64,000 nt of DNA, from positions 27,479 to 91,478 of the forward strand of contig QWPF01000001.1 in assembly GCA_003671255.1 (NCBI GenBank). The letters run 5' to 3'. Shown piece by piece: positions 4,717 to 53,545 of the stretch. The notes below the pieces were generated by a model. That model saw nothing but the letters and a program-made list of their open reading frames with translations, made no database searches and was not told the origin of the DNA. Each line of letters opens with the position of its first letter. The first letter of the stretch is position 1. Origin of the DNA: Planctomycetota bacterium. GTDB taxonomy: Bacteria > Planctomycetota > Planctomycetia > Gemmatales > Gemmataceae. Position numbers and translations under genes: made by a program.

Positions 4717-6162
4717 ATGGTTAACCCAATCATTCAAGAGTTGGATATTCCAACCTTGGAGAAATTACTTATTGGACGCATCGGAAAACCACGGTTTGAC
4801 CTGTGGTTTGGTAAGCTCGTTTCTTTCGTGTTAAACCACGATAAGTTGCTTGTTTTAGTCCCTAACAACCATTTTCTAGAATGGCTTAACAGTAAGTTTC
4901 GTAAAGATATCGAAGATGCGCTTAAAGAATGCTTTCTTGGCGCCAAGCAGGTCGTTTTTCAAATAGCACAACAATCTTCAGTCCAATCTGCAATAGTAAA
5001 TGTTGAGAATACCATTCAAAATGGTCCTAAGTTAAATTCATTAGATTTAGCGACTGTAAAAACGGATGGCGCTATTCAGTTGGTAAAGGTGCCTGGCACA
5101 AAAGAAGCCAAAAAAAGAGACTGGTTTGATTTTAAGTCTTTTGTCATCGGGGAATCAAACAAACTTGCTTTTGAAATGGCCCGTAGTTTAAGTGTTGAGA
5201 AACGAAGTGATACCAGTCCACTGGTAATTTTTGGCCCCCAAGGATGTGGCAAAACTCATCTTTTAGAGTCATCTTATAGGTCATTTAATAATTCTTTTCC
5301 ATTGATACCCGCAGAGTTTATTTCTGCGGAAGAGTTCACCAGTCAATTTGTTGTTGCGATGCAAAAAAATCGTATGCCTGCATTCCGAGCTAAAATTCGT
5401 GCCAATTCTTTGTTTGTTTTTGATGATGTGCACCTGCTTGCGGATAAACCCGCTACTCAAAAAGAACTCATGCTTAATCTTGATGTTATCACCCAAAAAG
5501 GGGGTAGCATTATTGCTGGAATGGATTGCCATCCACGCATGGCAAAGAAAATCATGCCCGAATTGTTAGACCGATTGATGTCTGGCATGATTTGTTCGGT
5601 GGATGTTCCAGAAGATTCGTTGCGCATTGCTTTAATAAAGCGTTATTGGGCATTGTTGTCGAATCAAGATATCAACTCAGAAGTTGTTGAATATCTCAGT
5701 AAAGAGATTCGAGGCAATGTAAGGATTATTCTTGGTGTTCTTAAGCAGATATCTAATTCTGTAAGAATAAACCGTGTATTACCCACTATGGAATTGGCCC
5801 GATCTATTGTCAGTGGTTTTGTTAGGTGTGTTTTTAGGTCTATAACTTTGCAAGATATTGATGAAGTTGTCAGTACCTTTCTTTTTTTGGCGCCGGGTTC
5901 CTTAAAGTCTGGCGTTAGGGAAGAAAAAATGTCTTTCCCGCGTAATCTTGCCATGTATCTTGCTCGAAAAAACTCTTCTTTTACTTACCGTGAGATCGGA
6001 AGCTACTTCGGTAACCGTAATCATAGCACCGTAATCGCAGGCGAAAAACAGATCGAATCCTTGATTAAATTTGATTCGCGTGTTCAATTTGCAAACCTTG
6101 AATACGATCTCAATTTTCTACTTCAGAGCATCCAGCAAAAGCTTCAATCCAGCAGATCTTAA
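4717..6162 (+). CDS. dnaA: Chromosomal replication initiator DnaA
   Basis: AAA+ Walker A GPQGCGKTHLL. Walker B LFVFDDVHLL. Domain IV HTH FPRNLAMYLARKNSSFTYREIGSYFGNRNHSTVIAGEKQIE. Confidence 0.9.
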   Translation: MVNPIIQELDIPTLEKLLIGRIGKPRFDLWFGKLVSFVLNHDKLLVLVPNNHFLEWLNSKFRKDIEDALKECFLGAKQVVFQIAQQSSVQSAIVNVENTIQNGPKLNSLDLATVKTDGAIQLVKVPGTKEAKKRDWFDFKSFVIGESNKLAFEMARSLSVEKRSDTSPLVIFGPQGCGKTHLLESSYRSFNNSFPLIPAEFISAEEFTSQFVVAMQKNRMPAFRAKIRANSLFVFDDVHLLADKPATQKELMLNLDVITQKGGSIIAGMDCHPRMAKKIMPELLDRLMSGMICSVDVPEDSLRIALIKRYWALLSNQDINSEVVEYLSKEIRGNVRIILGVLKQISNSVRINRVLPTMELARSIVSGFVRCVFRSITLQDIDEVVSTFLFLAPGSLKSGVREEKMSFPRNLAMYLARKNSSFTYREIGSYFGNRNHSTVIAGEKQIESLIKFDSRVQFANLEYDLNFLLQSIQQKLQSSRS

Positions 6163-6417
6163 CAACTTGCGTTTTATTTTGAGAGAATAGGTGGATTAGG
6201 CTGAGTCTGCCAATTCTTCGGCTTGCCGATTGCGAATTCTGTTTAACTATTCACTATTATTCCGTTTGTTCCTTTTATTTCTTCCGATTTGATTATTAGT
6301 GAAATGCGGCGATTAACAGATTGGCAATGCCGCAGGCCTTCGGGCGTATCGCAAGTGGTGGGGGTCGAAATGGATTTCGACAGCGATAAGCCTTCATATT
6401 CTGTAAAGGAGTCGGAG

Positions 6418-6903
6418 ATGAAGCGGTTTGCTTTAATTTTTGGTGTGTTGGCTGGTTTAGCCATTGGTTCTAATAATGTCCACGCTAGCTGGGGTTCCCT
6501 AGGGTACAGCGGCTGGCAACCTTGGTACAATATTTTTGCAAAACGATATAAATGCCTTACGCCTGAAGAAGAAAGACTTCAGAAATTCTGGCACGATTAT
6601 TACAATGCAATGGAGAAATATTACGGAGCACTAGATAATATTGACTGGGTAGCCTACTACAAGAATCATGGTTATCAAATCAATAGTGGCCCTGGTGGTA
6701 GCTCGAACGGTCGAGTTAATTATGCACCTGTTTTTGTAAGCCCCGGTCTTCAGTGGGCTGTTCCAAACGGTGCAGTAGGCGGCCCTCCAGTAAGTGGCGG
6801 AATGCCTGCGGGCTACGGAGTGATGCCAGCCGGTGGCGCAATGCCAGCCGGTGGTAACTTCCCCCCGATGCCAGTAAATTATGCCCCAGGTGCTGGTTAC
6901 TAA
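6418..6903 (+). CDS. Small secreted Tyr/Trp/Pro/Gly-rich protein with MPAGG repeats
   Basis: ATG at 6418 follows AAGGAG. Signal peptide MKRFALIFGVLAGLAIGSNNVHA. C-terminus GGMPAGYGVMPAGGAMPAGGNFPPMPVNYAPGAGY is encoded partly by an 18-nt-period direct repeat (6823-6858). Confidence 0.6.
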   Translation: MKRFALIFGVLAGLAIGSNNVHASWGSLGYSGWQPWYNIFAKRYKCLTPEEERLQKFWHDYYNAMEKYYGALDNIDWVAYYKNHGYQINSGPGGSSNGRVNYAPVFVSPGLQWAVPNGAVGGPPVSGGMPAGYGVMPAGGAMPAGGNFPPMPVNYAPGAGY

Positions 6904-26449: not shown

Positions 26450-27400
26450 ATGAATCTGTTAACCACGCTGTCAAATTCATTAATGCAGGGTTTTTTTCCA
26501 AATGGATGGGATTTAGGCAAAATAGATGGTCTTGCAGAGGTTTCTGGGTCTGATTTAGTGTCTAAAAAGAGCTGGTGGAACCCTGAATTCAAGCCAATCC
26601 CCTGTCAAAATCTAGGCGATTTTGATGTGTATATGGGGCATGAAATAGCTCTTGAAATTTCGAACTCACGAAAAAATGGGCGTGAACTTGCCATGATTTT
26701 GCCTGTTGGCCCTATGGGTATGTACCGTTGGGCTGTTTATTTTTTAAACCAATGGGATGTGAACTGCTCGCATGTGCATGGATTTAACATGGATGAATGG
26801 TCCGATGCTGAAGGAAATACTCTGCCTTCTGATAATTCCGGGGCATTTCAATTTGCAATGGAAAAAGCGTTTTATGGCCCGTTAGGTAAACTTACGGTGC
26901 CCAAAAATCAGCGAAACTTTGCTTTAAAAAATAATCTCCCATCCTATGCCGAGAAAATAAAAGCTCTTAAAACCAAAGGTGCCAAACTTATTACAGTCTT
27001 TGGTATTGGCCGTGTTTGTCATATTGCGTTTTGGGAACCACATTTCGCTGCTGAATTTGATTCCGTTGAACAGTGGAAACTGCAAACCCACCGTTTAGGT
27101 GCCAAGCTTCACCCATTAACCATTGAACAAAATGCTCTGACAAGTTTTAAAAGTAGAACGACATTAGTGCCTGCGTTTGCCAATACGATTGGGCCAGGTT
27201 TATTCTTGCAGTCAGATAGTATTATTGGGGGTTGTGATGGCACTTTTGGCAGGGGAATGCAATGGCAGGGCCTTTCATTGAGAATGAGTTTGCTGCATGA
27301 ACCAACGCCATGGATACCAAGTTCGTTTATGCCCACTTTGCCCGGGAAGTTGTTTTTCTTGAACGAATTAGCAGAACCCTTGGTTGCTGATTGCAATTAA
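26450..27400 (+). CDS. Glucosamine-6-phosphate deaminase/isomerase (NagB)-like protein
   Basis: [17 protein letters not shown]...[13 protein letters not shown] matches the NagB-family LGLPTG...FNMDEY pattern. AAGGAAAG precedes the ATG. Confidence 0.6.
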
Positions 27401-28794
27401 ATTGGTTTTAATGAGTTGAGAATCACATGCACTACTATGTCAATTTCCTCGGTTTTAAGGGTTCGTAAATCTAAAACGATTTTGTCCTCTTTTATCCGGG
27501 TAAATAGGGAAGGTTCAGCGGTTCTAAGTTTGTGAGATAAAGATTGTGTATCGAGATTGGGAGCTGAGAAATCGACCACCCAAGTAGGCATTTGCTGATC
27601 TGGTAAAGTTCCGCCTCCTGCAAAACCTTCACTGATTTTAGCTTCAACCTTATCGCACAAGCCGATTTGCTTTAATTTGGTTTCTAATTGAATAGCTTTT
27701 TCGTGTAGTTCATCCATGGAAACAGAGAGCATTTTCAAGGTGGGAATTTTCTGGCTTACCGTGCTTGAATTTAGATGAAGCAATAAGGTTTGTTCGAGTG
27801 CAGCAAGGTTCATTTTGTCGAGTCTGAAAGCTCGCATCAGTGGGTCGCTTTCAATCTTATCAACCCATTCTTTTTTACCTGCGATAATTCCAGCTTGAGG
27901 GCCACCTAAAAGTTTATCTCCACTGAAAAGCGTCAAGTCTGCCCCAAGTGAAATACTTGTAACAGGGTTAGGTTCCTCATCAAAACCCTTGCAATTAAGC
28001 GGTATTACCGCCCCGCTGCCTGCATCGTCAATAACGGGGATGTTGTGCTTTTTTCCAAGCTCAATTAGTTCTTCAATGGTTACGGATTGCGTGAAACCAT
28101 TGATTTTGTAATTGCTGGTATGAACTCTGATTAGGGCGCCTGTGTTTGGCCCAATTGCAGATTCATAATCTTTGATTCGGGTGATATTGGTGGAACCCAC
28201 TTCCCTCATAATGGCGTTGCTGACTTTCATGATTTCTGGAAGTCGGAAGCTCCCGCCTATTTCAATTAATTGGCCCCGGGAAATAATCACTTCTTTATTT
28301 TCAGCAACAGATTTTAAGACGATTATAGTTGCAGCTGCACAATTATTTACAACCGTGGCAGATTGGCACTTAAGTAACTTGCATATCCATTCTCTTACAG
28401 AATCCTGCCTGGAAGATCGCTTTCCTGTTTCGATATCTACTTCAAGATTGATATAGCCAGAGGCAGCCAGGTACGCTGCTTTCGCAGCTTCTTCTGCCAT
28501 AGGTGAACGGCCAAGATTAGTGTGTAAAACAATGCCAGTTGCATTGATAACTTTTCTTAGTTTTGGTTTGAAATGCAAAGTCAATCGATTGCAAACGGCC
28601 AAGCCAATGGATTCGGGTGAGGTATTTAAGGGTGGAGAGTTATCTTTGCTTAATGAGTTTCGAAGTTCATCGAGATAAAGCCTGATTTCTGAAACGACAT
28701 TTTCTTGACCCAGAGTAAGGGTAAGATCATGAATAGCCTTGATTTTAAGGATAACATGAACAGCAGGCAGGCTTCGAAAATTATTATTGGTCAT
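27397..28794 (-). CDS. selA: L-seryl-tRNA(Sec) selenium transferase
   Basis: [23 protein letters not shown]-lysine context [15 protein letters not shown]. Start overlaps the selB stop by 11 nt. Confidence 0.9.
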
Positions 28795-30742
28795 GTTCTA
28801 AGTTTTCTTGAGGGGTTTTTAACTGCTTTAAGGGAGGGTACCTAAGGTCGCCTTCCCTTCTAGTTGTTCCGATCTTATCGAGATGTTCGCAGAAAGGCAC
28901 TGCATATTTTCGCGAAGTTTTTAACAAATCTCTTATTTCCGCAACAGTCAAACCTTTGCCATTTTCAAGTGCGTTTGAAACTAAGCAACGCATTTCTTGT
29001 TCAACATCGTAGTCAAGGTATAAGTCGTCTTGCAAGCAGACTAATTTTCCCTCTTGAACGCTAAGGTTAAAGAGTTCTTGCAGTTGGATTTTCTGCCCTC
29101 CAAGGTGATTGATGAAATCTTCCATGGGTGGAGGTGCAAACTTTGCCTCGCGATAAGTTGAGTGGATTTTCTCGAGAAGTTTTCTTTGGTTGTTTGATAA
29201 CTTAGGTTTGAAAGCTGTTAACCCAATTCGCCTTTTGTTGCCAGTGAGGATTTTTTGTGCAATCATCTGGTCAATCAAATCCTGAACTAGTGCATCATCA
29301 GCGACATAGGCTAATTCGCTGGTAACGCGCTGGCGTTCGTGTGTTGATATCAATGGGTTTTCTGCGTGGAGAGATTCTAGGATAGTGGTTGTTTTGGTTT
29401 TTAAATCAATGATCAATTGATTATCGATTATTTTTTTTCTTCCTGTCGAGGTGTTGATTTCAAAAAGTGCTCCATCTTCCAAACCTAGTTTTAATTGCTC
29501 GTTGATTGCACTTGGATCAATACCAGTGAAAAGAGGCAATGATTCTTCATTGATTCCTTTGAAACCTGCAAACCAAGCTGCAGCTTTTAGCTTTAATACA
29601 TCTACCCCTGAAGCAAGATCGTTAAGCATTTGAATAGAGTGAGAATGCCTTCTGCGGATTTTACCTGCAGTTGGCTGGATAACATTTCCTCCGCCAAGGG
29701 TTGCGGTTGCTGAACTATTTCGGATTACAAAAGGTTGGCCCCAAGAAGCGGTTATGGGTTCTTTTAAAAACAATTGCGCAAGGCCTGGTTTCCCAGGTGC
29801 AATTGCATCGTCTTCCAATATGGATAAGGTTCCTAGAATTTCGGAAGTTCCTAGATGAAGCCTGACGGGTAATCGATGCTTCAAGGGTTTTTTTCTTTCT
29901 TTTGCGCAGTGCAAAACGACTGAAATTATTTTAGCAGGGAACAAATACCCAGGCGTTGCAAGTTCCTGACCCCTTACTACTTCATGGTGATCGATTCCAG
30001 CCAAATTGATGGCACAGCGCTGCCCCTCGGAAGATTGTTTGATATTTTTTGCGTGAGATTGCAAAGATCGAACCCGTACAGTTTTTCTATCCGGGAAAAG
30101 CTCTAATTCGTCGCCCTCACTTACTTTACCCGTATATACAGTCCCGGTTACAACCGCTCCATAGCCGTGAACTGCAAATGACCTATCAATGGGCAATCGA
30201 AAAAAGTGCTGTTCTTTTTTTGCTTCAATACCTGCGCAAATCTCTGTGATTTTGGTTTTAAGTTCAGCAATACCTTTGCCAGTGGTTGCTGAGGTTTGAA
30301 TAATTGGGGCATTTTCAAATGCTGACCCCTCGAGTAATTCGCGGATTTCCATTTCCACGACTTCGAGTGTATCGGAATCCCCAAGGTCGCATTTGGTTAA
30401 AGCTACAAGTCCATGTTTGATCTTTAAGAATTTAAGTATTTCAAGATGTTCTCTTGTTTGTGGCATAACTGAATCATCGGCTGCAACAATTAAAAGGGCG
30501 ATATCAAAACCAGTGGCACCAGCCAGCATGTTCTTGATGAATTTTTCATGACCTGGAACATCAATAATTCCAATTCGATAGCCCGGAAGATCAAGATTTG
30601 CAAAGCCCAGATCAATGGTGATACCCCGCGCTTTTTCTTCTGGTAATCGATCGCAATCAATTCCAGTAAGTGCCTTTACAAGGCTGGTTTTGCCATGATC
30701 AATATGGCCCGCAGTTCCTAGTATCAGATCTCTCTTTAGCAT
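28784..30742 (-). CDS. selB: Selenocysteine-specific translation elongation factor
   Basis: [48 protein letters not shown]. Long C-terminal winged-helix region typical of SelB. Confidence 0.9.
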
Positions 30743-34215: not shown

Positions 34216-35541
34216 TTGGGCATAGAAGCTAAGGAAAGTGCACCAGTAATAGAACCCAAGTTATGGTTTGGCTTAAGTGCCAAGGTTTGGTTTTTAGTAT
34301 TTCTTACCCTGTTTTTTGTAGGCCAAAGCATTAAGTATGCGATGAAAGTGTCAGAAAAAAGATCAGCAATCCAGCGCTGGCAACCCCAAATCCTTGGCCT
34401 CGATTCTGGCGAAGACCTTTCCCAAAAGTATCAGTATCCAAATCCCCCAATAATGGCGCTACTGCTTTATCCCTTAGCCAAGATGCCTCCAATGGTAATG
34501 GCTTTGCTTTGGTATTACATGAAGGTTGCCATGATTATCCTTTGTTTTCATTGGATATTTAATTTTATAGAGAAGGATGGAATGGCCTTTCCTTTATGGG
34601 CGAAAGCCTTGACGGTGTTATTGGCATTGCGCCCCATTACCGGAGATTTGCAGCATGGAAATGTGAATATTTTTATTCTTTTTGCTGTGATAGCTGGGTT
34701 GCATCTTTACACACTTCGTTGGGATGTTACCGGAGGAATATGCATCGGATTGGCGATTGCATGTAAAGTGACACCTGCGCTTTTCATTCCTTATTTCTTT
34801 TGGAAACGCTCATGGAACATGCTACTAGGAATCGGTTTAGGGCTTATGCTGTTCCTTTGGCCAGGCGTTTTCCCAAGTTTGATTCTTGGTTTTGACGAAA
34901 ACCAGAAGCAGCTTTATTCTTGGTATACCGAGATGGTTTATCCCTTTGTTATTGAGGGTAAAGTTTGGAGCGAGCATAATAATCAGTCTTTGCCTGGTCT
35001 GATGTATCGGATTTTTACCCATAGTCCTTCTTTTTCTGATTATGTCGAAGGCGTTTATACTCCCCTGGAATATCACAATGTTGCTGATCTTCCTGTTTCG
35101 ATTATCAGATTGATTCTCAAGGCATCTTTGGGCGTTTTTGCGTTATGTGTGGTGTTTTGTTGCAGGACGCCCTCAAATAACCGCGGTGGTTGGGCTTTGT
35201 CTGCAGAATTTGCAATTATTTGTCTGGGGATGCTTTTGTTTAGCGAGCGAACTTGGAAGCATCATTGTGTCACATTGGTTTTACCTTTTGCTGTTCTAAG
35301 CTATTTTCTTGCAACATGCCTTAAAACCAAAGCAAGCTATGTTCTTCCCGTTGGTACTATTTTCGTTGCTACTTTGTTGATGACGCTTACAAGTACAGGC
35401 CTTCTTGAGGATGATTTTGCCAAGGAAGCCCAAGTGTATGGCTGTTATGTTTGGGCATTTATCTTAATGATGGTATGCCTTTTCATCGTGCTTTATAGGA
35501 ACAATAAAAAGACCATGACAGTTGTAGTTGCAAGTAATTAA
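34216..35541 (+). CDS. Polytopic membrane protein, GT87/DUF2029-like glycosyltransferase
   Basis: About 10 or more hydrophobic helices. ITGDLQHGNVNIFILF resembles the DUF2029 conserved loop. TTG start is uncertain. Confidence 0.55.
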   Translation: MGIEAKESAPVIEPKLWFGLSAKVWFLVFLTLFFVGQSIKYAMKVSEKRSAIQRWQPQILGLDSGEDLSQKYQYPNPPIMALLLYPLAKMPPMVMALLWYYMKVAMIILCFHWIFNFIEKDGMAFPLWAKALTVLLALRPITGDLQHGNVNIFILFAVIAGLHLYTLRWDVTGGICIGLAIACKVTPALFIPYFFWKRSWNMLLGIGLGLMLFLWPGVFPSLILGFDENQKQLYSWYTEMVYPFVIEGKVWSEHNNQSLPGLMYRIFTHSPSFSDYVEGVYTPLEYHNVADLPVSIIRLILKASLGVFALCVVFCCRTPSNNRGGWALSAEFAIICLGMLLFSERTWKHHCVTLVLPFAVLSYFLATCLKTKASYVLPVGTIFVATLLMTLTSTGLLEDDFAKEAQVYGCYVWAFILMMVCLFIVLYRNNKKTMTVVVASN

Positions 35542-35614: not shown

Positions 35615-38600
35615 TTAAGGATTCACATTTGGCGGAGCTTTGTAGCCAGTCTGGTAGAACTCTTCTTCTTCCTGAATGATAATCCTAGGTGTTACCATGA
35701 TCAGTAAGCTTTCAGCTTCTCGACCATAGGAAGTGTTTCTGAAAAGCCTATTGAGGTAAGGAATCTTGCTAAGAATCGGAGGTCCGTATTCATTTCTAGA
35801 TTCGGATAGCCGTTTGATACCACCCATAAGCACCGTGCCACCATCTGGAACTGATACCGTGGTTTGTACTGCAATCGTATTGATAACAGGCTGCTGAATG
35901 TACTGGGTGAAGGTAACTGGATCACCAGGGTTTGTGGAAAGAGCACTGGAACTAGGGAAAATAGGAACCACAACAGGGAAAAGTGATACAGGTCCAGGTA
36001 CAAGGTTTGTTAAGGTGACAGGAATATTTAGCCTTACTGTTCTGCGATCTGCAGAGATAAGAGGTTGCACATTCATGTAAACACCGAATGGGAACGCTTG
36101 AACCGTCGGGGCAAAAGCGATATTACCATTAACAAGTGTTGACACATTTACACCCGTTACAAAGAACTGGTTTTCAGCAACAATAATGTTTGCGTTTTGA
36201 CCGTTAAACATAGTTAATTTCGGGGCTTGCATAACATTGGTTCTACGATCACCTTGAACTGCTTCCATGAATAGAAAGACTTGAATATCGCTTAGAAACG
36301 CCAAACCCATCGCAAGACCACCAGCGCCAGGCAATCCTGGGTATCCACCGAAAGAGGGCATTGCTAGCGGATAAGATGATTGTTTGATCGGGATATCAAG
36401 GTCGCTGGTGAAATTACCAGAGGGCGTGATACCGGCTATCATACGATCAAAGTTTGGATCGTTGATGTAACCTGAGGGCTTGTACTGTCCGGATTGAATC
36501 TGTGGTTCAAACCGTTGAGTGTTTTTGTCTGTCTTGATGTTAAGGTTAAAGTCTACACCAATTCGTTCGTAAAAATCTTCAGCGATACTGATGAAGCGTA
36601 TTTCAACTGCAACTTCCTGATCTTGCAATCTCCTTAGCGCGGTAAGAAGGTCTGCAACTTGTTCCTGAATGTCAGGTGATTGATTTATAACTAGGGCCAT
36701 GGTCAATGGGAAATATTCTATGGTTCCGGGTCCGCCCATGTTGTTCCATGCCTGGGGAGAAATGGTGCTGGTTAATAATTTAATCAGCATTTCTTCCATG
36801 GTCTGGCTGTTTTTCTTGCTCGTTGAAACATTCCCATTGGTTGCTGTGCCAGATGGTGTGCCTGTTGGCGTGCCCCCAGTCATGCTGTTGGAGTTCATCA
36901 ATGGACTGGTAGCATTGGTGCTATTGGCCGGTTGTTGGTTAGCAGAAATCCCGAGGATTGGTGAAAGAGAGTTCGTAAGCAAAGGGTTGACATAGTTTTC
37001 AACAGGGATCACCAAGTCTGCAACTTGATAAGTTACAGTCTGAAGTTTGCCCCTTGCGTGCGATTCAGTTGTTATCTGAAGAACTTCATCTTTAATCACA
37101 TAGGTCAAATGCGCGCTGTGCAACAAAAGATTTAATGCGCTCTTAAGCGATACCTGCTCCAGTTTAAGGCTTACCGGCCTGTCGAGGCTGATTCCTTCTT
37201 GTTCCAATGCTGGCATATCAGGCACAATGTTAATCCCGTAAAAACTTCGTAGGTCTTCAATTGCATCCTTTAGAAGAATGTTGTTGAAATTTAGATTAAC
37301 CGGCATGCTTAGCTTACTTTCAATTTCTTTTTCTTTGTCACTCTTCCTTGTGGTGCTGGTGATGGAAGTGAGGTTTTTGCGTTTGTTACGGCGATCAGCC
37401 ATTTCTGGATTCGTATCAAGTGGCTTGTCCATTTCTAGAGCTGGCCCTACTTTATCCGTGGCATTAAGCCCATCCAAGAAGAAGGTTTCTTTTTCAGATT
37501 TAAGCTTCTTGGCAACATTGATGTTTCTTTGGGTCTTTGCCATGCTCATACCAGCAGCAGCCATTGCGTTATCTGGATCTAATTCATGTGCCCTCATGGC
37601 ATAGCTTTCAGCTTCCAGATATTTGCCTTCTTTGAAATTCTGATTGAATTGTTTCATCAGATCCGCAACTTTCTTTTGTTTGTTATCATCAGCAAGCTGT
37701 TTCTGCCCGATTGCATTGATCTTGTCTTTCTGCCCACCATCCTTGGCAAGCATTTCTTTTTGGGCTTTCATAAGCTTGAAATGTTGGAGTCTTGATTCGA
37801 CAGGTCTTCGTAAAAAAGCCATTTTGCCTGGATCAAGATCGTTGCTGTTCAGTTCGTTTAAGTATTCTGTAAGCATCTCGATCCCAGCTTCGGTTTGACC
37901 AGCTTGGAATTTTTCCATTGCTTCGCGCTGAAGATCCAAACCTTGTTGCCTCATTTGGCCGAATTTAACTTCGCGAAGTTGATTGGTAGCTTCAAGAAGA
38001 TCTATTTCCCCTTCTTCTTTAGGCTTTGCTGTAGCGTTTACATTATTGGTAGGGGCTGGTTTTGTGCGAATATCAGTTGTACCCTTGACTAAAGACAGCG
38101 CGCTCTTTTCCTTGGGTTGCATTTCTGCAGTCATTAATATTTCTTTTAACTTCTGCTGGCGATCCTTATCAAGGTTCTTTTCTGTCAATGTTGAAATCAT
38201 TGTCTTTGATTGTTCATAATCTTTGCGATTGTATGCAGATAAAGCTGCATCAAAGGTACGCCTGGTTTCAAGCATTTTTTGATTTACATCTTCAATATCA
38301 ATGCTGCGAAGCACCGATGCTGCTTCTTCTTTGACTCCATAAGTTCCCTGATAGGCTTCAACTGCAAGTTTTCTTGCAGCAACCAATTGGCCACTTCGAA
38401 GCTCCAAACGGGATTTCTCCAGCAAAGCCTTGCCTTGGTTTGATTCTGCCATGGATTCGCTTGCAATAATCGCACTTCCAGGAACCTTGGTTTTAACTAA
38501 TCCTAGTTGAACTTTTTTTGATTCAATGCTTGCAGTGTCTTGCCCAAACGATTTTGAAAGATTGATTGCACTTTCAAGAGCTTGGTTTGCAGCCTCAGTT

Positions 38601-40960
38601 TTCTTTTCAACACTTTCGCTGCTATTCATGCTGCGAGTTGCCTGGGTGACAAGATCGTCGATTTGATTTCTTGCACTTGAACCTAATTGCAATAATAACT
38701 GTTCAGGGCTGTCTTCATTGGGTTCAAAAATTACCCCTTGCTTCTGAGCTTCGATGCCTTTCAGACGGGCAGCCACCAAATTGCCTGCCAATTGAAGTTG
38801 GCGCCCCTCTTTCAACATTGCAACGGTTTTTTCTTTGTCATTTCCGGATGTTGGTGGGGTTGGTGGAAACACGGGTGCAACAACTACCGCTGGGGTTATT
38901 ACGGGTGCAACAACTGCCGCTGGAGTAATTACGGGTAATGGTATTTTGGTTTCTGCGGGCGTGCCCTTGTCTGCAACTGTTTTAGATCGATTTTTTTCGA
39001 TATCTTTTAATATTGTGTCAGGGGTATCGCCTGCCAAGTTTTCAGATTTTACTTTCATTCCCTTTACCATGAAGGCAAGGGCGGCAGCTTTCTCTGGGTT
39101 ACCTGATTCAAGCGCGGTTCGAGCTTCTTTTAGGCTTGCTTGTGCCTTGGCTACCATTGCAGAATCATTGGCGTTTGCTTCGTCTTTGGGCGTATCTTTC
39201 TTCGCAATAAATCCATTCTTTTTTGATTTAAGTTTCGATGTTTCGATTTCAGCAATTAATCGTTGTGGACGATCTGATGTTTCCCAAACATTGTAGGGGC
39301 CGTGTAATTGTTGAGCCCTATACGCAGCTTTGGTGGCAGCTTCATAATCTTCTTGTTCAAATAGCTTTCTAGCTTCTAACAATACTTTGACAGATTCTTC
39401 TTTGTCTTTTTTTGCTTGTAATTTTTCGATTTCTGCTCGAAGTTTATCGGGTGAATCTTCGAATAAGCCCCATTTTGCACCAGGGGATGCCTTGGCACGG
39501 AGCATCAACCGTGTTGCTTCATCAGTTTTGTTTTCTGCCAACATCTTACGACCCCTGCGCAATAATTGCCTTGGGTCTTCTGTTTCTTTGGGCGCATCCT
39601 TGCCCGCCTGTTCTGTCAATGTTTTTCCTTCTGAACGAAGGATGTCGCTTTGTACTCTTTCTGGATTATCTTCCCACCAATTTAAAGTTGGTTTCATGGC
39701 TTTGGCTTGTTCGTTCAGCTTTTTCGCTTTTTCTGGGTTCGCTTCTGTTAAAGCTTTTCTAGCATCACGAATAAGATTTCTTGCGGCTTCGGTGTTCCCT
39801 GTTGTTACTTCTGTTTTCACTGGTTGGGAGGTGCCGGTGGAATTTTCTACAGTTAATACTGGTATGGCCTTTGGAGCAATGACTGGTTCTGGTTTTACTG
39901 CATTTTCTTTTGCTAAAGTTTTTGCATCTAATGCTGCAGCATCTACTTTAAGTTTGGCTCCTTGAATTTCTTTTAAAAGCTTCGAAGGAGAGTCGCTTGA
40001 AAGTGCAAATGTCCAGGTGTATGCTGATTTTTCTGCTGCTTTTGCAAGTGATTCTGCTCGGTCAAATTCTTTATTCGTAAAGTTTTTACGAGCTAATCCC
40101 AGCAGCGCTTTTGGATCTTGCTTTAATTTTTGAAGTTCCAACTTTAACTTCGCTTGAGTATCAGCTTCGGGTACCCCTGTAGTTGCCACTTCAGTTATCA
40201 TACCTTCAGCTTTTTCTAAGTCTCCCAGCGCTATTGCAGCACGCACTTGATCTGCGGTTATGGTTGATGTTGCGGTTTCTGTAGTCTTGATTGATGGTAT
40301 TGATTTTGGTTCGGAAAGTTTAAGCTCTTTTGGTTCAATTTGGATGTCAGTTTTGGATGCTATATCCTTGCTCTTGATGCTTTCTTGAAGATTCTTGAAT
40401 CGAAGTTTATCTGATTCGCGAAGATATTGTTCATCAAAAGCAATCTTTTTGGTCAAATCATTTGCAGCAGAAAATTGTTTCTTTCCGACAAGATCTTCTG
40501 CAATATCCAAGGTTGAAGCTGATTCTATACGAGCTTTTAAAGCTTTTTTGTTGGCTTCATACAACTTCTTAAAATCATCTGCTTCCGCTGGAAGTAAATC
40601 TTTCTGACGAGATTCGACTTCCTTGAATGATTTGTCTGCTTCTTCGTAATCGCCCCTGCGGTGAGTTTCGATTGCTTGGTTTAATGCAATGCTTGCTTTA
40701 TTTGGAATTCCTGGGGTTAACCAAGTAATTGCTGGAAGGATGCTGGTAACAACTGCAGCTTGTGCAATTGTTGGGGCCCCTAGCATTATCAAACTTAAGG
40801 ATGAAGCAAAACCTAGTTTTGCAAACCATGAAGAGTTAGAAATGGTTTTCTCCTTGCGAGATATAGTCATGATTTTACCTAAATTAAGATTCGAACAAGA
40901 AGGTGCTTTTGAATCAGAAATCACATTGTTTACTAAGCTGTTTGATTCATTAATATTCAT
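35615..40960 (-). CDS. Giant (1781 aa) secretin-family outer membrane protein with a long repetitive helical N-terminal region
   Basis: C-terminal secretin domain (VAVEIRFISIAEDFYERIGVDFN, QAPKLTMFNGQNANI, VSVPDGGTVLMGGI, IPYLNRLF, LLIMVTPRII). N0/STN-like domain at residues ~1218-1300. N-terminal hydrophobic signal/anchor. Residues ~285-890 hold at least 7 related ~50-aa modules. Confidence 0.85.
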   Translation of the reverse strand: MNINESNSLVNNVISDSKAPSCSNLNLGKIMTISRKEKTISNSSWFAKLGFASSLSLIMLGAPTIAQAAVVTSILPAITWLTPGIPNKASIALNQAIETHRRGDYEEADKSFKEVESRQKDLLPAEADDFKKLYEANKKALKARIESASTLDIAEDLVGKKQFSAANDLTKKIAFDEQYLRESDKLRFKNLQESIKSKDIASKTDIQIEPKELKLSEPKSIPSIKTTETATSTITADQVRAAIALGDLEKAEGMITEVATTGVPEADTQAKLKLELQKLKQDPKALLGLARKNFTNKEFDRAESLAKAAEKSAYTWTFALSSDSPSKLLKEIQGAKLKVDAAALDAKTLAKENAVKPEPVIAPKAIPVLTVENSTGTSQPVKTEVTTGNTEAARNLIRDARKALTEANPEKAKKLNEQAKAMKPTLNWWEDNPERVQSDILRSEGKTLTEQAGKDAPKETEDPRQLLRRGRKMLAENKTDEATRLMLRAKASPGAKWGLFEDSPDKLRAEIEKLQAKKDKEESVKVLLEARKLFEQEDYEAATKAAYRAQQLHGPYNVWETSDRPQRLIAEIETSKLKSKKNGFIAKKDTPKDEANANDSAMVAKAQASLKEARTALESGNPEKAAALAFMVKGMKVKSENLAGDTPDTILKDIEKNRSKTVADKGTPAETKIPLPVITPAAVVAPVITPAVVVAPVFPPTPPTSGNDKEKTVAMLKEGRQLQLAGNLVAARLKGIEAQKQGVIFEPNEDSPEQLLLQLGSSARNQIDDLVTQATRSMNSSESVEKKTEAANQALESAINLSKSFGQDTASIESKKVQLGLVKTKVPGSAIIASESMAESNQGKALLEKSRLELRSGQLVAARKLAVEAYQGTYGVKEEAASVLRSIDIEDVNQKMLETRRTFDAALSAYNRKDYEQSKTMISTLTEKNLDKDRQQKLKEILMTAEMQPKEKSALSLVKGTTDIRTKPAPTNNVNATAKPKEEGEIDLLEATNQLREVKFGQMRQQGLDLQREAMEKFQAGQTEAGIEMLTEYLNELNSNDLDPGKMAFLRRPVESRLQHFKLMKAQKEMLAKDGGQKDKINAIGQKQLADDNKQKKVADLMKQFNQNFKEGKYLEAESYAMRAHELDPDNAMAAAGMSMAKTQRNINVAKKLKSEKETFFLDGLNATDKVGPALEMDKPLDTNPEMADRRNKRKNLTSITSTTRKSDKEKEIESKLSMPVNLNFNNILLKDAIEDLRSFYGINIVPDMPALEQEGISLDRPVSLKLEQVSLKSALNLLLHSAHLTYVIKDEVLQITTESHARGKLQTVTYQVADLVIPVENYVNPLLTNSLSPILGISANQQPANSTNATSPLMNSNSMTGGTPTGTPSGTATNGNVSTSKKNSQTMEEMLIKLLTSTISPQAWNNMGGPGTIEYFPLTMALVINQSPDIQEQVADLLTALRRLQDQEVAVEIRFISIAEDFYERIGVDFNLNIKTDKNTQRFEPQIQSGQYKPSGYINDPNFDRMIAGITPSGNFTSDLDIPIKQSSYPLAMPSFGGYPGLPGAGGLAMGLAFLSDIQVFLFMEAVQGDRRTNVMQAPKLTMFNGQNANIIVAENQFFVTGVNVSTLVNGNIAFAPTVQAFPFGVYMNVQPLISADRRTVRLNIPVTLTNLVPGPVSLFPVVVPIFPSSSALSTNPGDPVTFTQYIQQPVINTIAVQTTVSVPDGGTVLMGGIKRLSESRNEYGPPILSKIPYLNRLFRNTSYGREAESLLIMVTPRIIIQEEEEFYQTGYKAPPNVNP
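38871..38936 (-). repeat. 30-nt tandem direct repeat (2.2 copies) inside the secretin gene
   Basis: ACGGGTGCAACAACTACCGCTGGGGTTATT / ACGGGTGCAACAACTGCCGCTGGAGTAATT / ACGGGT. There are 3 mismatches between the two full copies. Encodes PVITPAAVVA-PVITPAVVVA. Confidence 0.9.
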
Positions 40961-41183: not shown

Positions 41184-44100
41184 CTAGAAAGGTTGATTTA
41201 CACCAAACCAGAATTGTGTTCCCGTGCCTTGATTTATGGCTTGTGCAGCATCAAACCGAAGCAGCATTTTTTCTACAAAACTCATGAACGATACATCGCA
41301 GCGAATTCCCACTCCTACTCCTTGCGCTATCGAACCAAGAGCTTGGCTATTCACATAAGTGTTACCTACATCGTAAAAGAGTGCCAAATAAGTGTTTTTT
41401 AGTGAAAACAGATGGTCGACAGCGTCAACAGAGGTGTTTCGGGAAACTGGGAAGCGCAGTTCCGCACTGCCCACCCAAACTGAATTTCCTTGCCTTTGTG
41501 CAAGGTCAAAGGCACGAAACATTTCACCGCCCCCCATGGTGAAAAATTGTCCATAGGAAGGAACCGAGGTGCCACCGAATGCTCGCACTGCTAATCGTGT
41601 GTCTGCAATCCAGTTGGCAGTTTTATTTAAGAGAGGTTTTTCACCGGGCAAATAATCAAGCAAGCCAGATAGATTAGGTAAGTAGTGGACGGTTGAAGCT
41701 TGTGCCCATACTTTCTGTACGGTTGCATATTCATTTAAAAGGGCTTGTCCAGCTTCATAAACCGCATCAAATTGGTAACCACCTTCGGGATCCCAATAAG
41801 GAGTTAGGTAATTAATGCGATAATGAAGGCCCCCCGTGGTCATGTGCTGAAAGCGTTGAGCACCTGGGGCAGTTTGAACTGGATCTGGAAGGAAGTTGTC
41901 GTGGAAAGAGCCAAATACATCGATAAACTTTGAAGGAAGAAGATAAAGACTTGGGTGTTCCATAAATACATATCTACCAAATACTGAAGCACGCGTCGCC
42001 TCATTGTTCCCTTCATAGAAAGTATAAAAACGCCTTTCTGCATTAAAACCGAATTGAAATGGAGAATCGGGCCAGTGGGTGAAAAGGCCATCAATACCCG
42101 CAATAAAATCACGATAATCGGTTCGATATGCTGTATAAAGGCCCCCTGAAAATTCCTGCGATCTATATGCGCCCGCTCGCAAACCTACCATGGTTGCCCT
42201 GCTATACCAGACATCATCGTAACTTTTCATGTAAAGCCATGGACCAAAATTAAAATTCCAGCGGTCGTAGGAATTGGTAAGGGATGTTTCATCAACAAAA
42301 GTGTACAAAGGCGTTAATCGAAATCTTGGGCTGTGATGCCAGTAGTTATTCGAAGGGTTTTTATCAACAATTACAGAATCTGGATCGATTGCAATTTGAT
42401 TTGGTATATCTGGTAAGTCCACGGTTACCCTGATTGTGTCCGGGGAAAGATTCTCAACCGTTGCAGGAGGGTCATCAATTCCATAATTTCCCCCAGCGGG
42501 TAAGATTGGTATTCGAATCGAATATTCTTCTGACTTTCCCATGGCAAACCCCAGATAGGTTTGTTCACTGTATTCCGCATTTTGCTTAATAATAATAGTG
42601 ACGGTGGTTTTTTGATTTTTGGGGTTTGCGGAAGAGCGAAGAGATAGGGGCAAAATTTTTCGAGCCAATGGGGCATCATTTATTTTCACGGATTCCAGAT
42701 TCCAATCAGTCAAACCTGAACCCTTAAGCCACTTTTCAAAGAAATCCTCCCACGATTTTCCAGTTTGTGCTTCGAGTTCTTTTTGGAAATCGCTTACATG
42801 CATCACCTTGTATTCGTATTTTTTTCGTACACTGCGCATTACATCAAGAAATGCTTGTTCGCCTATTCTAGATTCAATCATTTCAACAATCTTTGCACCC
42901 TTGTCGTAACACATACTAAATAGCGTTACCACATGCCCGAATTTGTCCATGGGTTGAAGTATGGAAGTATTATCCCCCCTGCCAACCGAACCATAAAAGC
43001 CGTTCATTCTGTAATCTTCACGCTTTATATTGGGCAGCCATTTTAACGAATCAGGGTATTCAAGCAGTTCGTTATTTTTGCCCCGGGTTTGATTCAAAAA
43101 ACGATGGCTGAAGTAGGTTGCGAGGGCTTCATCCATCCAAGTTTCCCGATAACCATCCGTACCCACAAGGTTGTACCACCATTGATGACAAACTTCATGG
43201 CTTATTAGGTATTCTGCGTAACGCTTAGCAAAGTGAGGCATGGAGAAAATGCGCTCATCAATCATTACCAGCGAACCACATTCGTTCCCGTTCCAGCCAA
43301 AATAGGATTCAACAATGGTGAATTCAGGGTATGGGTATGGGCCAAACCAATGGCTGTAAGTGACCATGCATTCACAGACAATTCTTAAGAATTCCTTGGC
43401 AAAAAACTCATGTTCTTCGAACGCTTGAATTTTTACTTTAAGTGGTGTTTCTCTGCCTGGGAGTTTTATTTCGGTTTCAAGAATCTTGAACCTTGTTGAG
43501 CAAAGAAAAGCGAAGTCCCTTGTACCTTTTGCTTCAAGTCGCACTTTCTTTCTTCCATCTGGTAACTTTTCTTCCCCAACAATTACCCCGGTGCTGGCAA
43601 TTTGCTGATCACTGTCTAATGTTGCGGTGACATCATAAATGCCTGCTTCATTATAAAAGGGTTGGTGCCAGGGTACGAAAGGCGTTGGTTTCCAACCTTG
43701 TTCAGTATCGTTAGGGGTTTCCGCATGCCAATCATGTTTGTGATAAGCGAAAATCGGTAGCCAGTTGGTGAGGAAAGTTACATTTTTCCAATGCCCCCAC
43801 CTGCCTTGCTTTTCAGGTAAGCGCATTCTAAATTCGAGGTCAAAGGTGACTTTTTCGCCTTTGGCTAATGGTTGGTCTAAGTCAAATTCTAATGTTGTTT
43901 TCGTAGGGCCTGTAAATTGATGCTTTAATTTCTGAACGCTTCCGTCTTTATTCAAAATCCCCACTGTTTTTATTTCGAGACAGGGAGTTTTTGCCCCGAG
44001 CGAATCTCCGGGATTTAGCCTTAATAGTTCAAGTGTTTTTGCCATTAATGCTATGTCGCTATCGGGCACAATATAATTCGAATGTGTTACGAATACGATT

Positions 44101-44288
44101 TTGCTTACCGGGCTATCCGAGCGATTGGTCCAAGTTGCTTTTTGGTGCACCTCAACCGTATGCTTGCTCGTATCAAGATTCATTTGAATTTGGTATGCAG
44201 GCAAACCCTCAGGCAACTCGCATTTTCCAACGGAGGGAAATGCAAGCAGTGTGCAAAAACCAAATATCAAGCAGGTCAATTTTCTCAA
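41184..44288 (-). CDS. Secreted M1-family zinc metallopeptidase fused to a C-terminal Omp85/BamA-like beta-barrel domain
   Basis: Signal peptide. HEVCH (43185-43199) plus E 19 residues after the second His (WMDEALA), the HExxH-x18-E spacing of M1 peptidases. C-terminal ~380 aa carry GGGEMFRAFD, SAELRFPV, YDVGNTY and end in FWFGVNQPF. Confidence 0.8.
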   Translation of the reverse strand: MRKLTCLIFGFCTLLAFPSVGKCELPEGLPAYQIQMNLDTSKHTVEVHQKATWTNRSDSPVSKIVFVTHSNYIVPDSDIALMAKTLELLRLNPGDSLGAKTPCLEIKTVGILNKDGSVQKLKHQFTGPTKTTLEFDLDQPLAKGEKVTFDLEFRMRLPEKQGRWGHWKNVTFLTNWLPIFAYHKHDWHAETPNDTEQGWKPTPFVPWHQPFYNEAGIYDVTATLDSDQQIASTGVIVGEEKLPDGRKKVRLEAKGTRDFAFLCSTRFKILETEIKLPGRETPLKVKIQAFEEHEFFAKEFLRIVCECMVTYSHWFGPYPYPEFTIVESYFGWNGNECGSLVMIDERIFSMPHFAKRYAEYLISHEVCHQWWYNLVGTDGYRETWMDEALATYFSHRFLNQTRGKNNELLEYPDSLKWLPNIKREDYRMNGFYGSVGRGDNTSILQPMDKFGHVVTLFSMCYDKGAKIVEMIESRIGEQAFLDVMRSVRKKYEYKVMHVSDFQKELEAQTGKSWEDFFEKWLKGSGLTDWNLESVKINDAPLARKILPLSLRSSANPKNQKTTVTIIIKQNAEYSEQTYLGFAMGKSEEYSIRIPILPAGGNYGIDDPPATVENLSPDTIRVTVDLPDIPNQIAIDPDSVIVDKNPSNNYWHHSPRFRLTPLYTFVDETSLTNSYDRWNFNFGPWLYMKSYDDVWYSRATMVGLRAGAYRSQEFSGGLYTAYRTDYRDFIAGIDGLFTHWPDSPFQFGFNAERRFYTFYEGNNEATRASVFGRYVFMEHPSLYLLPSKFIDVFGSFHDNFLPDPVQTAPGAQRFQHMTTGGLHYRINYLTPYWDPEGGYQFDAVYEAGQALLNEYATVQKVWAQASTVHYLPNLSGLLDYLPGEKPLLNKTANWIADTRLAVRAFGGTSVPSYGQFFTMGGGEMFRAFDLAQRQGNSVWVGSAELRFPVSRNTSVDAVDHLFSLKNTYLALFYDVGNTYVNSQALGSIAQGVGVGIRCDVSFMSFVEKMLLRFDAAQAINQGTGTQFWFGVNQPF

Positions 44289-47626: not shown

Positions 47627-47700
47627 GCGCCCGTAGCTCAATTGGATAGAGCAACGGTCTTCGGAACCGTAGGTTATAGGTTCGACTCCCATCGGGCGCA
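47627..47700 (+). tRNA. tRNA-Arg (anticodon TCG)
   Basis: Hand-folded cloverleaf. Acceptor GCGCCCG/CGGGCGC. D arm GCTC-AATTGGATA-GAGC. Anticodon arm ACGGT-CTTCGGA-ACCGT. Variable loop AGGTT. T arm ATAGG-TTCGACT-CCCAT (one mismatch). Discriminator A. No encoded CCA. Confidence 0.9.
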
Positions 47701-52383: not shown

Positions 52384-52660
52384 TATCCAATCGGGTCTAA
52401 GCGGTTAAAGGGCAGACTACATAAGCAAACCAGTTCGCCAGACTGCCTATTTTAATTATAGGGTAGTTTCGCTGGTGTGCAACTTTCAAGATGCAGATAC
52501 CTATAAATAGAATTAGTTGCAATAGGGATTATACAAGATAAAACCTTTGTATATCCCCAAAACTTTAGGTGTTTGATTAAAGTTATCTTGACCATATCCC
52601 ATTCTAACCTTATTGCTAAATTTCGTGAAATTTTGTTTGTTGAGCGAGACAATAATTCTG

Positions 52661-53545
52661 ATGGGTAGAAATGGGACTGTTTTTTTGATGCTTTTTATGT
52701 TGGCAGGCTGCCTGCCTTCCGCCGATTCTTTTGTTATCCAAGAGAAAAAGAGTGATAATTCGTTATTGAAAACTATTGATGAGAGTAATTCAATCAGGCT
52801 TGATGTTGCTTTGGTTCAGCTTCCTATGGTGGACAAAAACATTCTCGAATCAATTTGGAGTTTAGCGGATAATAACTCTGTGGGTTTGGAAAAAAAAGCA
52901 GTGTTGGAGTTGAATGGATTTAGAATTACCAGCTTTGGGAAAAATCCCCCTCCCGAACTTCTCCGCCTTTTAAGTACCGAAAAATACACGCCAAACCCTC
53001 GAAGGCTCCATGTTAAAATTGGCGCGGCTAATGTTATTCCCATAACAGGGGTAATGGATTCACTTGATACCATTCTTTTTGAAAACGATACCAATCAGGA
53101 TATTAATCTTTTAGATGCACAGGCTTTTTTAAGGGTGTCTTCCATTTCGGTTTCTGAGAATTCTTATCAACTCAAGCTCGAGCCATTGATTAAATCTGGG
53201 AAAGAAAAGCTATTGCCCAAGCCGGTTAAAACTGCATCGGGAAGTCTTGAATGGGAAATGCACTCGTTTAAGTCGGAACGCATTTTTGATCAACTTGCTT
53301 GCGAACTAAAAGTTGAGGCTGGAGATTTTCTTGTGATTGGGCCAACTGAAACCCCCAAAGATGATTTAAAGTTGATGGGGTCCAATTTTTTTTATCTGAG
53401 AAATGGCCAAAATATCATTCCTCGGGTTCTTGTTTTGCGGTGTAGCAAAAAAAGTGCGCCTCTCCGAGATACCCTGGCTGAATTTGGCAAGTCTGTCCCT
53501 CTCGCAATTCAAGCTTCCTGGAAAAATTTCGAAGACGATAAATAA
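52661..53545 (+). CDS. Hypothetical lipoprotein
   Basis: Internal ATG gives MGRNGTVFLMLFMLAGC (lipobox LAGC). No recognisable domain. Confidence 0.5.
   Translation: MGRNGTVFLMLFMLAGCLPSADSFVIQEKKSDNSLLKTIDESNSIRLDVALVQLPMVDKNILESIWSLADNNSVGLEKKAVLELNGFRITSFGKNPPPELLRLLSTEKYTPNPRRLHVKIGAANVIPITGVMDSLDTILFENDTNQDINLLDAQAFLRVSSISVSENSYQLKLEPLIKSGKEKLLPKPVKTASGSLEWEMHSFKSERIFDQLACELKVEAGDFLVIGPTETPKDDLKLMGSNFFYLRNGQNIIPRVLVLRCSKKSAPLRDTLAEFGKSVPLAIQASWKNFEDDK

Follow-up and report, generated by a model that had tools for sequence, protein, structure and literature searches.

A giant planctomycete secretin with an N-terminal array of family-specific three-helix modules

Introduction

The periplasmic parts of secretins vary from system to system and decide what the outer-membrane pore connects to. 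Thermus thermophilus, which has a wide periplasm, lengthens its PilQ secretin on the periplasmic side with extra N-domain rings. Pilotins built of tetratricopeptide repeats (TPR) are established for the PilQ and RcpA secretins (PilF, PilW, Tgl and TadD), and in the exporters BcsC, PelB, PgaA and AlgK-AlgE a periplasmic N-terminal TPR scaffold is fused or coupled to an outer-membrane barrel. Here we analyse a secretin of 1781 amino acids (aa) encoded at positions 35615-40960 on the minus strand of a 64,000-nucleotide stretch of DNA from a Gemmataceae planctomycete (assembly GCA_003671255.1, contig QWPF01000001.1, positions 27,479 to 91,478; this whole stretch is the window). The giant secretin is about twice as long as usual, and its extra part, some 1,150 residues, is N-terminal and bears eight copies of a three-helix module.

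The periplasm of planctomycetes is enlarged, and their crateriform structures are press-stud complexes of the outer membrane, about 100 per cell, that touch the cytoplasmic membrane and carry pili-like fibres implicated in macromolecule capture (PMC5394234). In a review of 2025, the players behind these structures still count as unknown (PMC12673574). The genome description of Limnoglobus mentions pilus genes, secretins included (PMC7397252), and the Gemmatales show a large expansion of prepilin-like N_methyl/SBP_bac_10 proteins (PMC8567305). On balance, we take the giant secretin to be a PilQ equivalent that serves a type IV pilus-like machine of a freshwater Gemmataceae planctomycete as its outer-membrane secretin; that its repeat array serves as a periplasmic scaffold or tether seems to us an evenly balanced proposition.

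Results

Secretin domains and overall architecture

The giant protein is a secretin, and of this we have hardly any doubt. The Pfam Secretin model PF00263 matched aa 1568-1761 over positions 2-168 of its 169 with 99.9 bits, against a cut-off of 27.5 (E=1.5e-28), which places the protein in the secretin superfamily. The pore also matched pIV, GspD, PilQ and RcpA by sequence in the PDB (E 3e-11 to 8e-4), partial matches were obtained to the curated models of GspD, PilQ and MshL, and Foldseek, given an AlphaFold2 model of the C-terminal part (aa 901-1781), returned InvG, EpsD, PilQ and crystal structures of secretin N0-N1 domains. From its N-terminal end, the model passes from long helices, which reach to about aa 1170, through an N0 domain, a linker and one N-domain to a beta-rich pore; the pore domain, modelled as a monomer, was of low confidence. 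The gene as a whole, its start and its secretin part are laid out as follows, where pLDDT is the predicted local distance difference test score.

35615..40960, minus strand: whole open reading frame (ORF) of the giant secretin (ORF call; PF00263; full-length homologues of 1400-2000 aa)
40757..40870, minus strand: probable start M31 and Sec signal peptide, aa 31-68 (MTISRKEK...LGAPTIAQA; sequence reading)
37025..37339, minus strand: N0 domain, aa 1208-1312 (AlphaFold2 alpha/beta fold, pLDDT ~80; Foldseek)
36803..37009, minus strand: disordered linker rich in S, T, P, G and N, aa 1318-1386 (AlphaFold2 pLDDT <35)
36581..36799, minus strand: single ring-type N-domain before the pore, aa 1388-1460 (AlphaFold2; alignment to the GspD model)
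35636..36565, minus strand: secretin pore domain, aa 1466-1775 (Pfam, curated models, PDB sequence matches)

An earlier note on this DNA, made from the letters alone, had described an N0 domain followed by a canonical secretin domain. Both are there, and the scheme gains a further element in the ring-type N-domain between them, which the GspD model covers as well: it aligns from model position 262 onward, that is, with its N3 and secretin domains. The N0 domain is recognised by fold but stays below threshold by sequence. Its score for the Pfam STN model was 18.7 bits, under the cut-off of 28.4, and Foldseek paired it with the N0 domains of GspD, XcpQ, PilQ and EscC (probability 0.93-1.0). Pfam found no AMIN domain at E up to 1, and the N-terminal region was all-helical in the AlphaFold2 model.

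Translation probably starts at M31, since the residues ahead of M31 and its signal peptide are not conserved in the relative P0014 and the sequence itself reads that way; the putative Sec signal peptide would then end in AQA at about aa 68. No lipobox cysteine follows it in the giant secretin. A scan for promoters and terminators around the gene gave nothing exceeding shuffle expectation. Two ORFs lie antisense over the secretin gene, at 38835-39296 (plus strand, 153 aa) and 39387-39965 (plus strand, 192 aa), in a part of the window where the AT skew is -0.32 (38-40 kb); they are probably artefacts of skewed composition.

Eight copies of one module

The earlier note had listed seven sequences of a repeated helical module of about 50 aa, as a minimum count. 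All seven stand at exactly the residues it gave, the repeat is real by the concurring evidence of leave-one-out hidden Markov models (HMMs), hhalign and AlphaFold2, and only the total has moved, to eight, with the addition of a degenerate copy at aa 232-283. The features of the N-terminal region, with their leave-one-out scores and the number of shuffles that reached them, are these.

40352..40699, minus strand: N-terminal TPR-like helical region, aa 88-203 (AlphaFold2 helices, pLDDT ~90)
40112..40267, minus strand: module 0, degenerate eighth copy, aa 232-283 (hhalign 91-98% to modules 1-7, family profiles)
39962..40114, minus strand: module 1, aa 283-333 (15.4 bits, 0/300 shuffles; hhalign, AlphaFold2)
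39638..39787, minus strand: module 2, aa 392-441 (27.8 bits, 0/300; hhalign, AlphaFold2)
39425..39574, minus strand: module 3, aa 463-512, the most conserved copy, KWGLFEDSPDKL (22.6 bits, 0/300; hhalign, AlphaFold2)
39242..39394, minus strand: module 4, aa 523-573, LHGPYNVW..DRP (20.6 bits, 0/300; hhalign, AlphaFold2)
38996..39145, minus strand: module 5, aa 606-655 (17.0 bits, 0/300; hhalign, AlphaFold2)
38871..38936, minus strand: 30-nucleotide tandem duplication in the linker between modules 5 and 6, PVITPAAVVA twice (DNA repeat search)
38681..38827, minus strand: module 6, aa 712-760 (5.3 bits, 1/300, marginal; hhalign 96-97% to modules 2-5; AlphaFold2)
38291..38434, minus strand: module 7, aa 843-890, without the W..EDSP motif (6.9 bits, 2/300, marginal; hhalign 89-96% to modules 2-5; AlphaFold2)
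37361..38284, minus strand: conserved long-helix region, aa 893-1200, with a canonical TPR motif at aa 1106-1144, DNA 37529-37645 (AlphaFold2 helices)

The internal similarity is significant both against shuffles and between profiles. Pairwise BLASTP among the seven modules gave E values down to 2e-8. When an HMM built from six modules was used to seek the seventh, the five modules within aa 285-655 scored 15-28 bits, whereas the maximum among 300 composition-matched shuffles of aa 90-1220 remained below 10; the modules at 712-760 and 843-890 were marginal, with 5-7 bits, a level reached by one or two of the 300 shuffles. We then compared orthologous column blocks for each module, taken from an alignment of 21 homologues, profile against profile. 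Nearly all module pairs gave hhalign probabilities of 89-99%, whereas three flanking helical blocks of the same composition, used as controls, mostly scored below 60% against the modules. Modules 6 and 7 were accepted because these family profiles link them to the others. Module 0 went undetected when the module HMM was run on the window protein itself; in the relatives P0017-P0025 (30-36% identity) its position holds a full-scoring module. The blocks at aa 88-203 and aa 893-945 are related to each other (hhalign 94%); the former's relation to the modules is only weak.

The copies in the window protein share a median identity of 33% and are old repeats at the protein level. An origin as DNA repeats was considered and rejected: the only repeat at the DNA level is the 30-nucleotide tandem duplication in the linker, with a match of 91%. 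Linkers, as this duplication shows, change length by slippage.

Fold of the N-terminal region

In an AlphaFold2 model of aa 60-1000 based on the family alignment (mean pLDDT 74), each module forms three helices with a pLDDT of about 90, and the segments between modules, with a pLDDT below 50, are disordered linkers. Helices 1 and 2 make a TPR-like hairpin (LLxEARxxLxxGxxxxAxxLAxxA), which is followed by a loop carrying W-x-x-F/W-E-D-S/T-P and then by the third helix. In module 3, the residues W, G, L, F, D and P are nearly invariant among the 21 homologues. Modules 3 and 4 share one continuous helix (fragment residues 445-476), the last of the one being the first of the other.

The earlier note had allowed that this region might turn out to match a well-characterised domain family, and no Pfam family fits the module. 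Pfam on the whole protein yielded no N-terminal family match and no TPR family at E up to 1; on 28 single modules, it gave sporadic hits to TPR_4 (at most 6 modules, best E 0.0024) and DUF1771 (best E 0.0008). A Foldseek search of the PDB with the whole N-terminal model returned generic TPR proteins only, at E 1e-4 to 1e-2 and template-modelling scores below 0.2. With no TPR profile above threshold, and with disordered linkers rather than a contiguous solenoid, the modules do not qualify as TPR. A PDB sequence search with the N-terminal region did find one canonical TPR motif, outside the modules, at aa 1106-1144 (designed CTPR3, E=4.4e-4). It belongs to the long-helix region of aa 893-1200, which is conserved out to the Isosphaerales (124 bits).

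A large planctomycete family

The giant secretin does not stand alone. A search with the N-terminal 1220 aa alone returned 30 proteins, all planctomycete, and every complete one among them (1402-2003 aa) carries a C-terminal secretin domain. The cluster closest to the window protein has 290 member sequences across metagenomes. A word-indexed search with the module profile yielded nothing beyond four short pieces of these genes; we replaced it by an exhaustive HMMER search, in which the profile of 49 positions was compared with 1.84 billion representative proteins, clustered at 50% identity. It matched 1633 clusters at E<=0.001, 261 of them at E<=1e-30. Among the best 150 clusters, 98 have a secretin domain (1291-2309 aa); 22 of the other 52 end prematurely in the helical region downstream, in N0 or in the N-domain, and the remaining module-only proteins resemble contig-end fragments. 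In all complete matches the module stands ahead of a secretin, and we saw no convincing module outside this architecture.

The number of modules varies within the family. The 119 full-length members have 4-14 copies, copy number correlates with protein length (r=0.70), and linkers measure 11-100 aa (10th-90th percentile). In P0035, neighbouring copies are up to 94% identical, the mark of recent tandem amplification; amplification is thus continuing in some lineages.

We also scanned one genome per GTDB species with two narrow peptide patterns ([KR]WGLF[ED]D[TSN]P and similar) and found at least 153 species with a family member, a count that is a lower bound biased toward the Gemmatales. Apart from some bins with odd names, the best 80 of the 153 are Gemmatales or unclassified planctomycete metagenome-assembled genomes (MAGs); Limnoglobus roseus PX52, Gemmata sp. 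IIL30, Gemmata algarum, Zavarzinella and Frigoriglobus are among them. Nearest to the window, with 98% over the query stretch, are Gemmataceae MAGs from freshwater lakes. Several MAGs with close homologues (L003, L008, L014, L028 and others) are recorded as Candidatus Kuenenia, Alcaligenaceae or Singulisphaera sp. GP187; because their secretin loci look Gemmataceae-like, this suggests assemblies that are mis-binned or mis-named. As sampled here, mainly from these two orders, the family spans Gemmatales and Isosphaerales and includes cultured strains.

Public pipelines (JGI) already name members "GspD/PulD secretin / TPR repeat protein". In the literature searched, which included few subscription journals, we found no description of the family or of its module. 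What is new is a giant secretin family with its own repeat array; the kind of protein, a secretin, is known.

A pilM-led operon in Isosphaerales relatives

One and the same operon surrounds the secretin gene at three Isosphaerales loci, those of P0030 (an Isosphaeraceae MAG, L083), P0172 (L087) and the cultured Singulisphaera sp. Ch08 (CP155447.1, L089). Its order is a gene for a protein of ~1000 aa, a PilM_2 fusion, two membrane proteins, the secretin and a YdjY-family gene, so that the secretin occupies the position of pilQ, at the end of a pilM-led cluster. The first 350 residues of the PilM_2 fusion (~825 aa) match the full PilM_2 model (E=1.4e-35) and a transmembrane segment follows; the two further membrane proteins, of 590-700 aa, are single-pass, have glycine-rich low-complexity stretches and match no Pfam family. 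The pilus alignment proteins of this operon are two to three times their normal size.

L083 2768-9418, L087 2963-9651 and L089 10001-16376: oversized inner-membrane genes upstream of the secretin

At all three loci the secretin shows the family's succession of modules, helical region, N0 domain, N-domain and pore. HMMs made on the Gemmatales members scored four modules (58, 58, 43 and 26 bits) and each of the other parts in the secretin of Singulisphaera sp. Ch08. Metagenomes supplied 20 pilM loci that offered 8 kb or more counted from the start of pilM, and in 13 of these a module-bearing secretin lies downstream on the same strand. In P0063, the gene next after the secretin is a pilin-like one with N_methyl and SBP_bac_10 domains. 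A PilM search aimed at Gemmataceae copies listed 120 matches, all from Isosphaerales, and is silent on platform genes in Gemmataceae.

The pilQ position was seen in members from the Isosphaerales and neither in the window nor at 82 Gemmatales loci. The earlier note had named partner genes in an obvious operon as something that would tell against it; such an operon was found, and speaks in part against the note, but it lies in the Isosphaerales relatives and not beside the window. The "orphan" look of the giant secretin is specific to its lineage.

Neighbourhood in the window and in other Gemmatales

Pfam searches of the long ORFs bore out the claim that no pilus, type II secretion or Tad gene occurs in the 64 kb: they found dnaA, topoisomerase subunits, selA/selB, PSCyt/PSD and other housekeeping or planctomycete-typical genes. 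A six-frame scan of the window for the prepilin motif found none. De novo clustering of neighbouring ORFs at the 82 Gemmatales loci brought out no secretion gene that recurs. Two genes that flank the secretin gene in the window are kept at some of these loci.

41184..44288, minus strand: fusion of an M1 peptidase with an Omp85-like barrel, upstream and co-directional (Pfam; synteny at 16/82 loci)
34216..35541, plus strand: GT87 membrane glycosyltransferase, downstream and convergent (Pfam; synteny at 14/82 loci)

In the former, of 1034 aa, an M1 aminopeptidase domain (E=3.4e-20) is joined to a C-terminal barrel of the Omp85 superfamily (E=4.6e-5, 23.5 bits against a cut-off of 24); the protein may be an outer-membrane-anchored protease. 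Synteny with both genes extends down to ~40% secretin identity (~42% for GT87) and only within the window's clade; both are clade-specific neighbours.

The only other neighbour to recur, at 19/66 loci but not in the window, is a gene divergent from that of the secretin; it encodes a secreted beta-repeat protein without a Pfam match. The protein is mostly ~330 aa long, with 5-6 copies of a ~55-aa unit (..KVRKxGExxF..GIEVFxDxNxGxLVYISETGSIA..), and exists at some loci, such as L002, in a short single-unit version. It might be a partner or a substrate of the giant secretin.

L061 8305-9291, L059 8281-9399 and L002 9343-9774, all minus strand, with 16 further loci: divergent secreted repeat protein

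As to the wider setting, dnaA (4717-6162, plus strand) lies ~30 kb from the secretin gene, and the chromosome record of the complete Limnoglobus roseus PX52 genome (L059) has the homologous locus in its first 5-25 kb; a position near the origin may be conserved. The genes selA and selB, for selenocysteine synthase and its elongation factor, lie at 27397-30742 (minus strand); ARAGORN found a single tRNA in the window, a tRNA-Arg at 47627-47700, and thus no tRNA-Sec. An ORF of 905 aa at 57867-60584 (minus strand) has no Pfam match at E<=1e-4, and ORFs without a match also lie at 1529-2944, 6289-6903, 26450-27400 and 52613-53545.

Discussion

The reading that we favour, a PilQ equivalent of a type IV pilus-like machine, draws on the C-terminal domains and on the operon of the Isosphaerales relatives. 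The C-terminal 570 residues, comprising the N0 domain, the flexible linker, one N-domain and the pore, would assemble, as secretins usually do, into a multimeric gated channel. The ~1,150 residues ahead of them, with their TPR-like helical hairpins, eight family-specific modules and disordered linkers of variable length, would lie in the periplasm, and there the array could act as a flexible scaffold or tether, its length open to evolution, between the pore and a remote inner-membrane platform, the cell wall or both. It would cross the enlarged planctomycete periplasm and replace the AMIN domains of classical PilQ, with the secretin gene, in Gemmatales, unlinked from those of the platform. Such a role is proposed because of the periplasmic position, the bead-and-linker build, the evolvable copy number and the oversized operon partners; variable copy number, variable linkers and oversized inner-membrane partners plausibly fit an enlarged periplasm. 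The earlier note had offered a scaffold that spans the periplasm as speculation, and the idea stays plausible. We infer that the Gemmataceae copy serves the same machine as the copy in the Isosphaerales operon.

Several points weigh against this reading. Orthology between the Gemmatales copy and the operon-linked Isosphaerales copy is assumed, and the link to a pilus machine in Gemmatales rests on that assumption because no pilus gene lies near the secretin gene there; the survey of the 82 loci found no recurrent secretion or pilus gene. In 7/20 of the metagenomic pilM loci, no secretin lies downstream. The score for the PilQ model TIGR02515, 92.4 bits, falls short of its cut-off of 284.35 and does not place the protein in that family, and the top NCBIfam match was instead the GspD model TIGR02517, which with 101.9 bits against a cut-off of 351.35 does not claim it either. 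As regards the array, the predicted template-modelling score of the N-terminal model was 0.25, too low to fix how the modules are placed relative to one another, and the near-invariance of the motif W-G-L-F-E-D-x-P in modules 3 and 4 among the 21 homologues suggests a specific ligand rather than a passive spacer.

A reading that is compatible with a PilQ equivalent goes further. The family would be the core outer-membrane ring of the crateriform structures and the repeat array their stud; the pore would be both crater and exit of the fibre, and a lineage-tuned number of modules would pin the outer to the cytoplasmic membrane across an expandable periplasm. We hold this to be possible, if rather unlikely. 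It agrees with the description of these structures as outer-membrane complexes that contact the cytoplasmic membrane and bear pili-like fibres (PMC5394234), and with a family that was found here only in Planctomycetes, is widespread and highly conserved, joins an outer-membrane pore to a very long periplasmic part and has, in the cluster closest to the window protein, 290 sequences from across metagenomes. The case is circumstantial, however: we found no localisation, proteomic or genetic data in the literature, and the sampling is mainly of Gemmatales and Isosphaerales, whereas the structures were characterised in Planctomycetales and Pirellulales.

The protein could also be the GspD of a type II secretion system that exports planctomycete hydrolases, with the array docking the pseudopilus platform or substrates. 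The rank of the GspD model, with its alignment over N3 and the secretin domain, the GspD/PulD names given to relatives by the JGI pipelines, the expanded N_methyl/SBP_bac_10 set of Gemmatales, which is pseudopilin-like (PMC8567305), and the occurrence of such a gene after the secretin of P0063 all speak for it. Yet the GspD score does not reach a third of the 351-bit cut-off and barely exceeds that for PilQ, one N-domain stands between N0 and pore where GspD has N1-N3, the operon partner in relatives is PilM_2, of a type IV pilus family, and not GspL, GspM or GspC, and no gsp gene was found at the ~150 loci examined. We therefore judge a GspD improbable.

Less probable again is an array that acts as a built-in pilotin or assembly chaperone, the cis equivalent of the TPR lipoproteins PilF, PilW, Tgl and TadD, which would serve outer-membrane targeting and multimerisation of the pore and not periplasmic bridging. 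Modules and flanks are indeed TPR-like, and no separate pilotin gene was seen adjoining the secretin gene in the window or at the Gemmatales loci. Against a pilotin stand the missing lipobox cysteine behind the signal peptide, the build of isolated three-helix units in place of a continuous TPR superhelix, and the 4-14 copies, long disordered linkers and lineage-specific amplification, which are ill-suited to a chaperone with one groove. Finally, that the modules are a chance similarity among low-complexity helices is hardly credible and was rejected, for although the repeat-bearing region is biased in composition (A, K, L and E make up 44%) and two of the seven copies were marginal in the leave-one-out tests, composition-keeping shuffles never reached the scores of the other five, hhalign united the modules and not the same-composition flanking blocks, and the motif is found again at the orthologous sites of relatives with 30% identity and in 1633 clusters.

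The family exchanges the usual N-terminal domains of a secretin for 4-14 undescribed three-helix modules, and does so across many planctomycetes. Together with its oversized partners, the giant secretin is a concrete candidate for an envelope-spanning machine that copes with an enlarged, deformable periplasm, and the family is a candidate component of crateriform structures. If the latter were true, those structures would be remodelled type IV pilus machines, and macromolecule capture in planctomycetes would become genetically testable; members are present in Limnoglobus, Gemmata and Singulisphaera, which are cultured and in part genetically tractable.

Comparison with known systems

Among described secretins, PilQ of type IVa pili (P. 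aeruginosa 6VE2, M. xanthus 3JC8, N. meningitidis 4AV2) shares with the giant secretin the C-terminal series of N0, N-domain and pore, and the Isosphaerales relatives sit at its place in the pilM-led operon. It differs in having AMIN domains, where the giant secretin has a helical extension of ~1,150 aa with eight new modules, in being about half as long, and in its genetic linkage, as the giant secretin gene is unlinked from pil genes in the window and at the other Gemmatales loci. GspD (TIGR02517; 5WQ8, 6I1Y) is the best-scoring curated model, and its N0 domain and pore align; unlike GspD with its N1-N3, the giant secretin has a single N-domain, no gsp neighbours and, in relatives, a PilM partner.

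For a secretin lengthened on the periplasmic side, PilQ of Thermus thermophilus is the precedent. There, however, the additions are rings of beta-alpha-beta-beta-alpha domains that stack rigidly, whereas the giant secretin adds three-helix units on disordered linkers. The pilotins PilF, PilW, Tgl and TadD likewise bring TPR-like helical repeats to bear on secretins, but each of them is a small lipoprotein of its own with a single contiguous TPR domain, in contrast to a fused array that lacks a lipobox and varies in copy number. BcsC, PelB, PgaA and AlgK-AlgE resemble the giant secretin in coupling a long helical-repeat region, thought to bridge to inner-membrane machinery, to a C-terminal outer-membrane channel. 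Their channel is a monomeric beta-barrel and not a multimeric secretin, their repeats form a continuous TPR superhelix and not separated beads, and the giant secretin has no linked polysaccharide synthase, the adjacent GT87 gene being a clade-specific neighbour only. Set beside these systems, the giant protein is still a secretin doing a secretin's job, an architectural variant rather than a new kind of system, and as such a route into planctomycete envelope biology.

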